64,000 nt of DNA from sequence record PP400780; one strand, given 5' to 3'. The position numbers were made by a program, and so were the translations under genes. Below, one piece after another: positions 2,185-25,628 of the stretch. Under the pieces are notes generated by a model. It was not told the DNA's origin. It ran no database searches and saw only the letters and a program-made list of their open reading frames with translations. This stretch comes from Escherichia phage FL18. The stretch's first letter is position 1. Each line of letters opens with the position of its first letter.

Positions 2185-5100
2185 CTAATTTAACCTGTGG
2201 TGGATTCACGGGGTCTCTTGGATTTCCTACATTATCGATTAACCGTTGTTCAACCAAATCTCTAAATCTAGAGAATGTTGTTCCGGACGCATCAAATAAT
2301 GGGCTCATCAGTTTACGTCGTTCCGATGGAAGTTGACCTTGAAATATGGAGTTATTGTTTTCAGCGTTATAATCTTCAGGCAATGGATAATCTTGATCAG
2401 CCATAGGGCCTATTTCATATATCGCTTTACCTGTAATAGGGTCAAACTCAACATTTCCTTGTGGGTCTAATTTAGCCACTCGGTCGGCATATTTAGTCGG
2501 TAATCCAGAATCCCACTTATAGTTTTTGTATTTATTAATAATGGTTTCAACATGTTTAAGTGTTAATCCGGTGTTAATAAACATTGTGAGAAGGGTAATT
2601 GCGATAAATCCAAATCCAACCGGATGAACAAAACGTAATACGTCTGATTTCCAACGAGATGATGGAAGTTTAGATTTAATCTTCATTACGTAGTATGCTC
2701 TACCACGATTTATGTAATCGATGTTGTTCTGAGAAAGCTCTTTACCTTTAATACCACGAACAATTTCACCTTCAAACCCAGGGAGTCTTTCAGCTTTAAC
2801 TTCCTGTCCTTGGATTAAACGTCCTAAGAGGTTGTGAATTGTTACAGTCCATTGTAATTTACCTTTAGAGTAACTTCTCTCGATATACGTCACATTACAA
2901 CGTCCTGTAGCGGTGTATATGGTTTGTCCGACCAAATCTTCTGTCAACGAATCAGATTCAATGATGATATCATATTCGGTCCCGGAACTAGATTCAATTT
3001 CAATTTCAACATCTTCATTATAAAGCACTTTAAACAAGAATTTATATGATGCTTCAGTTCCTTTAGTTGAATAGAAGTCATAACTTCTTGATTCAAAGAA
3101 ACGAGACACTAAATCGCGTTTTTCGGCGTTTAAGTAAATGTTTCGTTTATAAATCTCAGACCATAAATATTCCCACGCATGTTCTTCTCGCGGATATTGA
3201 TTTTTAATAAGATTCAAAAGGTTATTATAATGGGTCCCATAACCGTCAGAAAGATACTGAATATAAGCCTCGCAGAATGCTTCGAAGTTTGTATTATCTA
3301 AAAGATAAGACTCCGGCATCATTGTAGTGAGCAATGGTCGTAAATCTGGGTCTGCAATACCGTTCTCTTCTACAGGAGTCCATGTGGTATCTTTTTCTTG
3401 GTTTTGTAACGATGCTGTTAAGAATATATTAGTAGGCTTCCAAATTATAGAAACATTATCTCTAACACGATAACTAAAATCATAATAAGAAATAATCTCA
3501 CCTGATGATTTATAGAAAATCATGCCGGATGCATATTTTTTAAATCCGGTGAAATCTACGTTAGGCATCACTATTGTACAGTCACCGTCCTTCCAATATT
3601 CATGAACTTCACGGTCTGAAGAACTAAGTGGATGATTCTCAATAACCTTAGTGTAAAGTAAATCAGAATAAATTACAACGGCCTTGTCTGAGTTATTAAT
3701 CCAACATCGAGTACCAGACTTTCTAGAATAACTAAAGAATGGCTCAGCATAGTATTCCATCGGTTGAGGAGTGAACGATTCCCATTGAGAGTCTTCAGTT
3801 GAAATAAATGCCATCATATGATAATGTTTATCAGCCAACCATTCGCGAGGATACTCATATTTAACAGCCCCGATTAAACCGTACTTGACTTGTGTTTTTT
3901 GGTCATCAACAATATCTGATTCTAAAAATTTAAAATTACTAGATGAAATAGATAACTCAACACCATCAGTAGACATACTGGTGTACCCAGGTTCAATACG
4001 ACGGCGTTCTTCTTCAGTATTACCAAACACACGTTTAAATGTGCCGGCATCATGGTCTAGAACGTAAACACCCTTATCAGCAGAATCAACAATAGGAGTG
4101 GTCCTCGGGTCGTCATTAAGATTAACAACTTCACCGATAATCAGTGCAAATATTTTACCACCGACAGAATCCATTTTATAGCAAACTGCCTTAGGGTTAC
4201 CTGTGATGTTAAATGTTTCTTGTTCAAACAAACGTTCGGAATATGTCGGAGATAACGGGTCTGAATCAATAGGGGCATTACTAGTTTTAATAAAACGAAC
4301 TTTATCTCGAGCAGCAACGTATACATAATCGTCATTGCAAACGATAGCTTCTGCAATACGTGATACGTTAGCAGGTAATGATGCGTAGTTACCAAATATT
4401 TCTACATCAAATCCTAAATTTAATTGGTCACCAATTTTAGCAAATGTTATATCTTGAGAACTAAATCTCACATCATCAGCAGACCATCGAACGTCTGTTG
4501 ATTTACGACCGTAAAATAATTTATCGTACCCAAGAACATACGTGGTGTAATCTGTCTGGTAATACACTGTTCTTGATACAGGATACCCTACACGGTCATT
4601 AAACAATTTAACCGATTTCCAGGTTTGTCCCTTATCATTAGAGACTTTAACCACAGGCTGATACCGTTCAAACAAATAAAGAATTCCTTCGGATTCCATC
4701 AAATAAACACGGTTTATATCATGACACACTTGTTGAATCGAACCTTGAATTTCATGATACTCATTTTCGCCAATAATGAAATTTTTAATAGATGAAATAT
4801 CCGCATAAGCAGGGCTAAATTGGAACGATTCATTCATTAGAGCTGCCATTATAGTGTCGTTATTAAAATCGACATAAGCCATGTTGTTATTTGTAAATTT
4901 TTCTCTAATAAAAGTGTTAGCCAATTGCATTTCAATCATATGTTGAAATGTATACGCGTTAGTCTGAAATGATTCAAATATTTCGGTATATACCCAATCG
5001 GATCTCTCGAAGCCTTCGGCGGCAGTTGATACACGAATAATATAAGAAGTTAACGGGTCTAAGCTACTTTCGAACCAGTTGCTATTAGGAGTATATCCTA

Positions 5101-14300: not shown

Positions 14301-14327
14301 TATCAAAACAACCAAATGGAACCTAAA

Positions 14328-14591
14328 ATGAAAACTTTCAACGAATTCATCTCAGAATCATCTGGTGTGAAAATTAACAAAGCGGTCAATCAGGTTATTG
14401 CTGATATTCTTAATTTGTATAACATTGACTTAACTCCGCATATCACGCTTGGTAACAAACGAAACTTTTTCGTATTTGACACATCCGAACTTGATGAAAA
14501 TCAGTTCAATAATATTCAACGTTTTGCTAATGATAAAGGTCTTCGACACGAGCCTGGTGGCTATAAAAAATACGCAATATATTTGAAATAA
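14328..14591 (+). CDS. internal-protein-like, CTS MKTFNEFISE
   Basis: start taken at second ATG to match CTS; 87 aa. Confidence 0.55.
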   Translation: MKTFNEFISESSGVKINKAVNQVIADILNLYNIDLTPHITLGNKRNFFVFDTSELDENQFNNIQRFANDKGLRHEPGGYKKYAIYLK

Positions 14592-15611: not shown

Positions 15612-15685
15612 AGGCCCTGTAGCTCAATGGTTAGCAGCAGTCCCCTCATAAGGGAAAGGTTACCAGTTCGAATCTGGTCTGGGTC
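15612..15685 (+). tRNA. tRNA with anticodon CAT (Ile2/Met-type), no encoded CCA
   Basis: manual cloverleaf: anticodon loop ctCATaa, T-arm accag-ttcgaat-ctggt; acceptor stem has one mismatch and one G-U, D-stem weak. Confidence 0.5.
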
Positions 15686-15691
15686 ATATAT

Positions 15692-15768
15692 TCGAGGCAT
15701 AGCTCAATTGTATAGAGCAACGGATTTCTAATCCGTAGGTTGAAGGTTAGAATCCTTCTGCCTCGACC
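15692..15768 (+). tRNA. tRNA-Arg (anticodon TCT), CCA encoded
   Basis: manual cloverleaf with perfect 7-bp acceptor stem cgaggca/tgcctcg, D gctc/gagc, anticodon loop ttTCTaa, T-arm gaagg-ttagaat-ccttc, CCA. Confidence 0.85.
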
Positions 15769-15769
15769 A

Positions 15770-16084
15770 AATAAGAAGCCGGGTCGCTACCGGTAAGTCG
15801 TCGGACTGATGTTCCCTGAGTAAGGACTGGTCTTAATAAATCTTTACGATTTGTTAATATCCCCTTACATCACAGCAGAAACGGCGCACCGAATTATCGA
15901 TTCGAGGAAATATCTTTGCCGTAAGCCGAGTAGCGTTTTTGACGGAACGTTCGGATATGGTCGAGATATGGCCTTTTAAAAATATTGAGTAGCGTCAACT
16001 GCTTAATAACCGGGTTCGAATCCCGGCGTTTCGTACAAACACTTGCCTTAGCAGGTGGGACCCCGACAAGGTTGCCGCAAGGCT
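15770..16084 (+). ncRNA. possible small stable RNA(s) co-transcribed with tRNAs
   Basis: no ORF; contains T-arm-like ccggg-ttcgaat-cccgg at 16009-16025; ends at intrinsic terminator; T4 is reported to carry small stable RNAs in its tRNA cluster. Confidence 0.3.
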
Positions 16085-16114
16085 TAGCCCCTTCCGAAAG
16101 GTTGGGGCTTTTTT
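16085..16114 (+). terminator. intrinsic terminator (agcccc..ggggct + T7), cassette copy 1
   Basis: hairpin with GAAA loop followed by T-run. Confidence 0.6.
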
Positions 16115-16115
16115 T

Positions 16116-16123
16116 GTATAAAT
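16116..16123 (+). promoter_or_regulatory. late promoter TATAAATA immediately after terminator
   Basis: exact TATAAATA. Confidence 0.45.
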
Positions 16124-16159
16124 ATAGTAAACAATAAACCTACTTTCTAAGGACCATCA

Positions 16160-16786
16160 ATGTATACTTTTAATGAATTTTTAGCCGAAACGGAAGTAAT
16201 CACCGAAGCCGGTGTACGTATGACAAAAGAGAAATGGCAAGCTGCTTACGATGCTATTTCTGGTACAAAAACTAGTACAGAGTTTTTCAAAAACGTTCAA
16301 GCCATGTACGGTATCGACACTTCCAGCCAAAAAGAATATTACAGAGCTTCTAAAGCATTCAAAGATATTGTTAGTGGTGGCGTTTCTGCTAAATCGGGTT
16401 CGCCTAAAGTAAAACCTGCTCCTACCATTTCTAAACCTGCGACCCCTAAAGCAATAGCAAAACCTGAGCCTAAGCCGGAAGTAAAAGCAACTCCTAAAGC
16501 TCCTGCTCTTAAGTTTGATACTTCTAGCCTGGAAAAAAAATATAAACAACTATCTTCGCTTGTTCGTGATATTGAATCCGATACATCTTCACTCGTTCGT
16601 GAATTCAATAGTCTTCGTAATGGCCAACATATCAACAACCTTGATACCCCAGACCTTTATCGTCTTTATTTGACTATCGAAGGTTTGAAGTACACTCAAC
16701 CACTTCACGATGAGATTAAAGAAAAACTTCGTCAGGCAGGTCGTTTGGCTGCTGACGCTGCTCAGTATGCAAAAACTCGTAAGTAA
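16160..16786 (+). CDS. internal-protein-like with CTS-like N-terminus and Pro/Lys-rich repeat region
   Basis: N-terminus MYTFNEFLAE; repeats PKVKPAPTISKPATPKAIAKPEPKPEVKATPKAP; 208 aa. Confidence 0.55.
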   Translation: MYTFNEFLAETEVITEAGVRMTKEKWQAAYDAISGTKTSTEFFKNVQAMYGIDTSSQKEYYRASKAFKDIVSGGVSAKSGSPKVKPAPTISKPATPKAIAKPEPKPEVKATPKAPALKFDTSSLEKKYKQLSSLVRDIESDTSSLVREFNSLRNGQHINNLDTPDLYRLYLTIEGLKYTQPLHDEIKEKLRQAGRLAADAAQYAKTRK

Positions 16787-16791
16787 AGAAT

Positions 16792-16807
16792 GGGGACTTC
16801 GGTCCCC
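16792..16807 (+). terminator. UUCG-tetraloop hairpin after ORF
   Basis: ggggac-ttcg-gtcccc, no T-run. Confidence 0.35.
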
Positions 16808-16838
16808 ATTAGGGGGTCTATAACTTTCTGAAAAAGTT

Positions 16839-16880
16839 GTTTACTTCTTCCCTAGATGTGTTACTATAGACCTATAAAAA
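16839..16880 (+). promoter_or_regulatory. PeSL (GTTTAC ... TGTTACTATAGACC)
   Basis: seen in sequence. Confidence 0.5.
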
Positions 16881-16895
16881 CATGAGGAAAATATT

Positions 16896-17201
16896 ATGAG
16901 TCTTTATACTGAACTGAATAAAAAATCTGAAGAATCTGCTGAAACTATTTTTAAAAACGTGCAAAAGCGTATTTTAGAAAAGATGTATAACGCTGCAGCT
17001 AAAGGTGAAAAATCTTGCCAGTTTCCGATTAGGTGTTCTTCAGATTTATGCGCAAATACTATTGAATGGCTGGAAAGTGAAGGTCTTACGGTAAAGAAAA
17101 ACCCGGCGACTTCTATTGACGGTGAATCATATATTAGTATTTCTTGGGATAAACCACGTATGAATGAAGGATACTACAAGTTGTTAAGTTGGAAAAATTA
17201 A
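16896..17201 (+). CDS. hypothetical protein
   Basis: 101 aa ORF after PeSL with SD GAGGA. Confidence 0.5.
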   Translation: MSLYTELNKKSEESAETIFKNVQKRILEKMYNAAAKGEKSCQFPIRCSSDLCANTIEWLESEGLTVKKNPATSIDGESYISISWDKPRMNEGYYKLLSWKN

Positions 17202-25325: not shown

Positions 25326-25628
25326 ATGAAAACATATCAAGAATTTATTACTGAAGCGCGAGTGAGTGCAGGTAAATTAGAAGCCGCTATAAATAAAAAG
25401 GCCCATTCATTTCATGATTTGTCCGATAAAGACCGTAAGAAACTTGTAAGCCTTTATATTGACAAAGAGCGTATTCTCGCTCTTCCTGGCGCTAATGAAG
25501 GTAAACAGGCCAAGCCTTTGAATGCTGTCGAAAAGAAAATTGATAACTTTGCTTCTAAATTCGGTATGTCTATGGATGACCTTCAGCAAGCGGCTATCGA
25601 AGCAGCTAAAGTAATTAAAGGTAAATAA
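25326..25628 (+). CDS. internal-protein-like, CTS MKTYQEFITE
   Basis: 100 aa; SD AAGGA. Confidence 0.6.
   Translation: MKTYQEFITEARVSAGKLEAAINKKAHSFHDLSDKDRKKLVSLYIDKERILALPGANEGKQAKPLNAVEKKIDNFASKFGMSMDDLQQAAIEAAKVIKGK

Follow-up and report, generated by a model that had tools for sequence, protein, structure and literature searches.

The gene at 16160..16786 on the + strand of the window (the whole 64,000-nucleotide stretch of Escherichia phage FL18, record PP400780, that was analysed here) encodes a 208-aa member of the family phrog_2280 and is probably a new, unannotated member of the polymorphic class of internal proteins (IPs) that carry a capsid targeting sequence (CTS). We lean slightly towards a reading in which, with all of the proposed steps taken as a whole, its product is a late-expressed, non-essential, T4-type internal protein that is packaged and injected. 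The course that we infer runs through late transcription, packaging, cleavage, DNA contact, injection and an effector role. Expression from its own late promoter would place the protein in the cell during prohead assembly, where its first ten residues, MYTFNEFLAE, would serve as the CTS and dock it to the scaffolding core. The prohead protease gp21 would then cleave behind Glu10 and probably also at VITE|A, behind Glu16, leaving in the head a basic product of ~21 kDa (pI about 9.7, net charge +13) whose Lys/Pro/Ala linker, which resembles histone H1 tails in composition, would lie on the packed DNA. At infection the protein would be ejected together with the DNA, and its C-terminal domain, perhaps along with the N-terminal one, might interact with a factor of the host or with the ends of the entering DNA; a counter-defence role like that of IPI* is the most plausible.

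An earlier note on this DNA had given the same ORF, and its coordinates and length agree exactly with ours. What that note observed is confirmed; its interpretation as a whole, that of an injected, extended or disordered protein with a capsid-targeting N-terminus, a Pro/Lys repeat region and a C-terminal helical domain, is partly supported. The ORF begins with ATG, and the N-terminus of its product, read from the window sequence, is MYTFNEFLAETEVITEAG. A Shine-Dalgarno sequence, AAGGA, lies 6 nt before the start codon (16149..16153, +), and the encoded protein has a mass of 23.2 kDa and a pI of 9.5. We rejected the reading that this is not a gene because the ORF, the promoter and the ribosome-binding site are all conserved across genera.

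An AlphaFold2 model built on a 10-sequence alignment (mean pLDDT 71) had helices at residues 23-72 (pLDDT 76-86) and a set of three helices at 122-206 (pLDDT 83-89), whereas the leader (residues 1-18) was unstructured and residues 74-112 were disordered, both with pLDDT below 50. The disorder and the C-terminal helical domain that had been proposed from the sequence are both predicted by this model. The earlier note had missed the N-terminal helical domain (residues 17-73; 16208..16378, +), which has three helices, is conserved in the family alignment A1 and is of the type that we call A (RMTK..W...YGIDTSSQKEYYK..AFK). It is followed by a disordered, basic, Pro/Ala/Lys-rich linker (residues 74-118; 16379..16513, +) containing 10 P, 8 A and 10 K, with a net charge of +8 and three [ST]PK motifs; the best P/A/K segment is at residues 82-116, PKVKPAPTISKPATPKAIAKPEPKPEVKATPKAPA. 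The bias towards Pro and Lys that had been noted is real, but it is one of composition: Tandem Repeats Finder found no tandem repeat at the DNA level, so the linker is a low-complexity region and not a true repeat. The remainder of the protein is a C-terminal three-helix domain (residues 119-208; 16514..16783, +), which holds most of the invariant columns of alignment A1 and is the best-conserved part of the protein, with the pattern FDTS..KKY.QL..L..IE..T..LVRE...LRNGQH.NNL.TPDLY.LYL.IE.L.YTQP. This domain is nearly neutral (net +2). The protein computes to a pI of 9.5-9.7 and a net charge of +9 to +13, and with the first 16 residues taken off, to 21.3 kDa, a pI of 9.7 and a net charge of +13. 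Fold searches returned generic helical-bundle matches with no informative fold, and Pfam, NCBIfam, PADLOC and a PDB sequence profile search returned nothing specific on the function of either domain.

The CTS of T4, which forms the N-terminus of IPII and IPIII, is MKTYQEFIAE (PMC8442874). Its residues 4 and 7 are mainly needed for targeting and residues 8 and 10 for processing, its ten residues alone are enough to load foreign proteins into the head, and the propeptides of T4 IPs are 10-19 residues long (PMC9026906). The FL18 leader (residues 1-10; 16160..16189, +), already put forward as capsid-targeting, fits the T4 CTS at all four mapped positions (Phe4, which is aromatic, Phe7, Leu8 and Glu10), while residue 2 is Tyr vs. 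Lys in T4. The leader ends in an L/I-x-E motif, L8-A9-E10, with a predicted first gp21 cleavage after Glu10. It is followed by TEVITE (residues 11-16; 16190..16207, +), which ends in a second predicted gp21 site, I14-T15-E16|A17, and would give Ala17 as the mature N-terminus. This second cleavage-type site (VITE|A, residues 13-17) had previously been overlooked; the T4 IPI propeptide has a similar end, ...STITE|A.

We searched the six-frame translation of the window with a loose CTS pattern and obtained 5 matches, whereas 100 shuffles gave a mean of 0.01. Each match was located at the N-terminus of a + strand ORF (13955, 14316 from its Met5, 16160, 24549 and 25326). ORFs 13955 and 14316 match PHROG 'internal head protein' families, and ORFs 24549 and 25326 have IPII-like N-termini and occupy the IPII/IPIII position; by sequence, the four other ORFs are of the internal-protein type. 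As called, ORF 14316..14591 starts MEPKMKTFNEFISE, and its CTS is N-terminal only from the second ATG at 14328, which is probably the true start.

A CTS-type decapeptide is kept in the 17 family N-termini that were compared, 15 of which also carry an [LIVF]-x-E-[AS] second site. In alignment A1, Glu16 is invariant, and Glu10 and Ala17 are nearly so. Members that are only 30-46% identical still have the leader and the second site, as do those with an exchanged N- or C-domain, which argues for selection on the leader itself. Past the leader, the likeness to known IPs ends. In agreement with the earlier statement that the protein has no obvious counterpart among the classical T4 internal proteins, hhalign of the family against the IP ORFs of the window and T4 IPIII aligned only the first 18-25 residues, and homology to the bodies of IPII-like proteins, IPIII-like proteins and T4 IPIII was rejected since the alignments stop at residues 18-25. 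With the window's own IP ORF 24549, the leader is shared and nothing aligns further, and no IP PHROG matched the FL18 protein at E values up to 1.

Membership in phrog_2280, a widespread modular family that the earlier note did not recognize, is based on a match with an E value of 8.2e-58 (residues 1-203 on profile positions 1-178 of 178). The family has no assigned function in PHROGs; it is also matched by proteins of wV7 and PG7, gp153 of fHe-Yen9-01, RB69ORF149c and the VMC04 and PKO111 proteins. An exhaustive HMMER profile search of 1.84 billion representative proteins found only 13 representatives, all of them small proteins of phrog_2280, and proteins of this family were found in T4-like phages only. 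The FL18 protein is 98-99% identical in other Mosigviruses and 60-68% identical in Dhakavirus. By tblastn against phage genomes, its type was present in 143 records of Mosig-, Dhaka-, Winkler-, Karam- and Tegunavirus. A first variant, which differs from the FL18 protein in its C-domain while sharing its leader, N-domain and linker, gave matches in 180 records; 58 of these, including Jiaodavirus, cover most of the variant, and the others, mostly genes of the FL18 type, match its N-terminal part only. A second variant, with the C-domain type unchanged and another N-domain, matched 558 records (474 over most of its length), including many Tequatroviruses, e.g., wV7 and RB32. All three types match phrog_2280, and in every record listed the members are annotated as hypothetical and none as an internal protein.

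Domain exchange is a feature of the family: the type A N-domain is replaced by a different domain in wV7, fHeYen901_153, P0025 and P0027. What persists down to ~30% identity and across such exchanges is the leader, the second site (in nearly all members) and the P/A/K linker. The linker varies in sequence and in length (7-44 aa) but is always positive (net +1 to +9), and the family proteins are all net basic (+4 to +14). In the literature, no paper on the gene or on phrog_2280 was found under its accession, locus tag or family name. Several individual members are of note in their own right. fHe-Yen9-01 carries tandem phrog_2280 paralogues, gp154 and gp153 (4001-4570 and 4580-5116 of L003), each with its own CTS-like leader and with differing N-domains. 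RB69ORF149c (MKTYAEFLTEA..., 146 aa; 9429-9991 of L006, minus strand) is a family member whose match ends at about position 121 of 178 of the profile, and the overlapping ORF148c resembles the remainder in another frame; this split could mean that the gene is a frameshifted pseudogene, that the sequence contains an error or that the frameshift is programmed. Upstream of the Jiaodavirus member, a short ORF (MKVYAVVKNNWNCEYGYEEY...; 3561-3734 of the ValerieMcCarty04 locus, L009) is annotated 'vertex head subunit'. Its PKO111 counterpart (723-1235 of L005) carries a fused gp24-like N-terminus and comes immediately after gene 23, an arrangement that looks like the result of misassembly or misannotation.

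The window is from a T4-like coliphage of the genus Mosigvirus, with 96-97% nucleotide identity to JK42, moskry, HX01 and JS09. Upstream of the gene the order is 57B, the IP-type ORFs 13955 and 14316, tRNA.4, tRNA.3, tRNA.2, tRNA-Met, tRNA-Arg, rnaD and rnaC; downstream it is an RB69ORF146c-like gene, frd.3, e.6 and e.5. The gene therefore occupies a slot after tRNA-Met/tRNA-Arg/rnaD/rnaC and before the e.8/e.6 block, in a variable region that adjoins the ipI locus. The two tRNA genes lie at 15613-15769, directly followed by a homologue of the T4 stable RNA rnaD (15771-15890; 87.6% identical to T4) and then by a homologue of the T4 stable RNA rnaC (15897-16035; 98.6% identical). An Rfam search of the surroundings returned the two tRNAs only, Rfam having no model for rnaD or rnaC. 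The small ORFs 15851..15979 and 15985..16137 overlap these two homologues and are almost certainly not genes. In JS09, RB69 and most close relatives, an RB69ORF150c-like gene of ~345 bp (6280-6624 of L001; 10421-10765 of L006) sits between tRNA-Arg and rnaD. It is missing from the window at about 15769/15771, so megablast matches fall into two pieces, with ~350 extra bases in the relatives.

An exact T4 late (gp55-dependent) promoter box, TATAAATA, is located 35 nt before the ATG (16117..16124, +). Since this motif is not enriched in the AT-rich window (9 observed vs. 8.8 expected), the argument for a promoter rests on its conserved position: in JS09, JS98, fHe-Yen9-01, PG7, wV7 and ValerieMcCarty04, the homologue has the same box 27-40 nt before it, always following a stem-loop and with flanks that have otherwise diverged, and the box is present upstream of the gene in seven genera. 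Late expression from this box is the reading that its position suggests. The box is preceded by a conserved spacer after rnaC (16036..16116, +), the left boundary of the cassette, in which a stem-loop at 16086-16109 (AGCCCCTTCC-GAAA-GGTTGGGGCT) and a T-run at 16110-16115 likely form the terminator of the tRNA/rnaD/rnaC unit. The first 78 nt of the spacer are 92-97% identical in RB69 and T4 and ~95% identical in wV7. At the right boundary, a second stem-loop directly follows the stop codon (16789..16810, +; AATGGGGAC-TTCG-GTCCCCATT, 9 pairs, 5 G-C), and the next gene, 16896..17201, has a T4 early-type promoter (GTTTAC, 17 nt, TACTAT; 16839..16867, +) that we read from the sequence. Similar hairpins are present 3' of the gene in JS09 and JS98, as is the same early-promoter arrangement. 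The downstream stem-loop and the early-type promoter of the next gene together predict that the FL18 gene is a self-contained, monocistronic late unit.

Variable genes of T4-type phages are known to be bounded by a stem-loop plus an early promoter and to be gained and lost as cassettes (PMC2839356). In wV7, the gene is flanked by two copies of a terminator element, TTAGCCCC..GAAAGGTTGGGGCTTTTTGG, whereas T4 has a single copy (7831-7908 of L007) followed by the sequence that comes after the second copy in wV7, and has neither TATAAATA nor the gene at this slot. One copy in T4 vs. two flanking copies in wV7 indicates that the promoter and the ORF were gained or lost together between direct repeats; the T4 state, with one copy and no gene, is as expected from recombination between such repeats. 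Terminator-like elements, TTAGCCCC..GAAAGGTTGGGGCTTTTT, flank the cassettes in this slot at 2873-2965 and 3479-3509 in wV7 (L008) and at 4266-4360 and 4939-4972 in JS98 (L002). As judged from its distribution, the gene is dispensable, as IPs are, because T4 has no copy, the RB69 copy appears to be split (ORF149c, ORF148c) and ValerieMcCarty01 retains a remnant of 151 nt.

The classical IP-type genes of the window (13955, 14328, 24549 and 25326) have no TATAAATA upstream. Three of the four have early-type promoters (GTTTAC/TTTACA, ~17 nt, TACTAT/TATAAT-like), and the remaining one, 24549, is located directly after the lysozyme gene and has no separate promoter. One copy of TATAAATA occurs at 25388, inside ORF 25326.

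The sole relevant virion proteome that we found is that of Klebsiella phage ValerieMcCarty04, a Jiaodavirus, from a single CsCl-purified preparation (PMC13119998); Supplementary Data S2 of that paper gives peptide rows by protein in genome order. The family member in this phage, VMC04_131 (WKM80661), has TATAAATA and agrees with the FL18 protein in its N-domain and linker but not in its C-domain; its leader, MKFKDFLTEE, is shorter by one residue. It was represented by 0 peptide rows in ValerieMcCarty04 virions, S2 passing from WKM80658 to WKM80662, while the classical IPs WKM80648 and WKM80649 had 26 and 66 rows, respectively. A CTS-bearing ORF in the ipI slot, WKM80674, had 1 row, which was spurious (non-matching). 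The latter protein (127 aa; 17897-18280 of L010, minus strand) is annotated as hypothetical and adjoins 57B. Two of the four CTS-bearing ValerieMcCarty04 proteins were therefore abundant in virions and two were unseen, which lowers our confidence that a CTS-like leader guarantees packaging. We consider that the absence of WKM80661 weakens the packaging claim for the FL18 protein without refuting it, because the variant differs in leader spacing and in its C-domain and because a single preparation was analysed. It is on account of this proteome that we favour packaging and injection only slightly.

Other sources were of less help. The literature searched yielded no virion proteome of a Mosig-, Dhaka-, Karam- or Winklervirus member, and the AV110 paper deals with early genes only, inferred by T4 homology. 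The ValerieMcCarty03 supplement text that was searched contains no 'internal virion protein' rows and no sign of the locus. As this phage is also not among the records that match the gene, ValerieMcCarty04 alone is informative.

The lack of peptides from the Jiaodavirus member in purified virions in which two IPs are abundant would also be explained if the protein were a late cytoplasmic one that is never packaged and that acts in the infected cell, e.g., in assembly, lysis timing or exclusion, its leader being a relic of cassette exchange or serving another purpose. A late promoter tells of timing and not of destination, and the protein has no homology to IP bodies, both of which accord with a cytoplasmic protein. 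We nevertheless regard such a protein as rather unlikely: a relic should decay, yet the leader and both cleavage motifs have been kept over divergence to ~30% identity and over domain swaps, and since the ten-residue CTS alone packages foreign proteins in T4 (PMC9026906), a late protein that bears a CTS should enter proheads.

Alternatively, the protein could reach the prohead and still be missing from virions if it were a transient core component that docks on the scaffold, undergoes gp21 cleavage and leaves the head before DNA packaging or in its course, without being injected. The CTS, the late promoter and the absence from the one virion proteome would fit this explanation, as would the helical character of the AlphaFold2 model, since scaffold proteins are helical as well. 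However, only the two N-terminal L/I-x-E sites are conserved in the family, and I-K-E at residues 186-188 is not conserved in homologues, so the ~21 kDa body would survive gp21, as that of IPIII does. Moreover, the gene is situated between the tRNA genes and e.8 and not in the head-gene cluster, and, as its absence from T4 indicates, it is dispensable, unlike gp22, gp67 and gp68. On these grounds we rejected assignment to the prohead scaffold/core proteins, and we consider a transient core role unlikely.

If the protein is packaged and stays in the head, as we favour, it might act purely as a counter-ion that condenses DNA, in the manner of IPII and IPIII, with no specific host target. Its net charge of +13 after processing, the always positive, H1-like linker and the binding of T4 IPs to DNA at low salt (PMC9026906) would suit such a role. 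Against it, the best-conserved part of the protein is the nearly neutral C-domain and not the basic linker, whose length ranges from 7 to 44 residues, and domain swapping suggests specific partners. We infer from the conserved, nearly neutral C-domain and the swapping that a specific partner is favoured over a pure counter-ion role, which we think very unlikely.

A broader proposal, which we offer tentatively and regard as rather improbable, is that among injected T4-type internal proteins no unrecognised family is larger than phrog_2280. Its members would combine a CTS leader, exchangeable N- and C-domains and an H1-like, DNA-riding linker; the domains would be swapped between genera as counter-defence modules, and the proteins would enter the cell on the leading DNA. 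Several hundred sequenced Tevenvirinae genomes contain the family but T4 does not, which on this proposal would be why it was never studied. The internal proteins of T4 are the model for proteins that are injected ahead of phage gene expression, and to our knowledge, only IPI among them has a known role, that of an anti-restriction factor. With the same targeting leader, its wide spread and its absence from T4, phrog_2280 would add candidate injected effectors that have swappable domains and have not been studied. This bears on host range and, because candidates for therapy include many Mosig-, Dhaka-, Karam- and Jiaodaviruses, on which phages are chosen for treatment. phrog_2280 also offers a test of whether a CTS-like leader predicts packaging, and the ValerieMcCarty04 proteome suggests that it may not always do so. 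What sets the FL18 protein itself apart is mainly the breadth of its family, a modular build from two domains and the fact that T4 lacks it.

Among known systems, T4 IPI, which as IPI* inhibits the GmrSD type IV restriction enzyme, offers a close parallel. Like the FL18 protein, IPI has a CTS-type leader followed by a second site ending in ITE|A (MKTFKEFTSTTTPVSTITE|A in T4 IPI), and both proteins are basic and non-essential, with genes in the variable region that surrounds the tRNA cluster. The mature parts share no similarity, and the FL18 protein is twice as long and has two helical domains with a disordered linker. The FL18 gene also differs in having a TATAAATA of its own; of the window's IP genes, three have early-type promoters and 24549 has no separate one.

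T4 IPIII is close to the FL18 protein in size (193 vs. 208 aa), is basic and has a CTS leader, but hhalign aligned the two over residues 1-25 only, with a probability of 27%, and IPIII has no Pro/Lys linker and is encoded at another locus, denV-e. The basic character of the T4 IPs as a group has been described, as has their binding to DNA at low salt (PMC9026906). The linker itself recalls Pro/Lys-rich spacers such as the periplasmic spacer of TonB and the S/TPKK tails of H1-type proteins in its KP/PK dipeptides, positive charge and predicted extended, disordered state; this resemblance is compositional only, with three [ST]PK motifs in the FL18 protein. Assignment to the TonB family was rejected (E value 0.0064; 16.4 bits vs. 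a cut-off of 315).

A further comparison is with the polymorphic, CTS-bearing internal proteins of T-even phages, of which Repoila et al. in 1994 and Comeau et al. in 2007 reportedly described more than 30 variants. IPI belongs to these polymorphic injected proteins (PMC3012670). As in the FL18 gene, a diverse body follows a conserved CTS, stem-loops and promoters mark the boundaries, and the genes are gained and lost as cassettes (PMC2839356, PMC3012670). The FL18 gene differs in that its slot after rnaC is outside both classical IP loci and in that phrog_2280 is of unknown function in PHROGs, with none of its members called an internal protein in the records listed. Because polymorphic variants of this kind have been known since 1994, and number more than 30 (PMC2839356, PMC3012670), we place the FL18 protein in their class.
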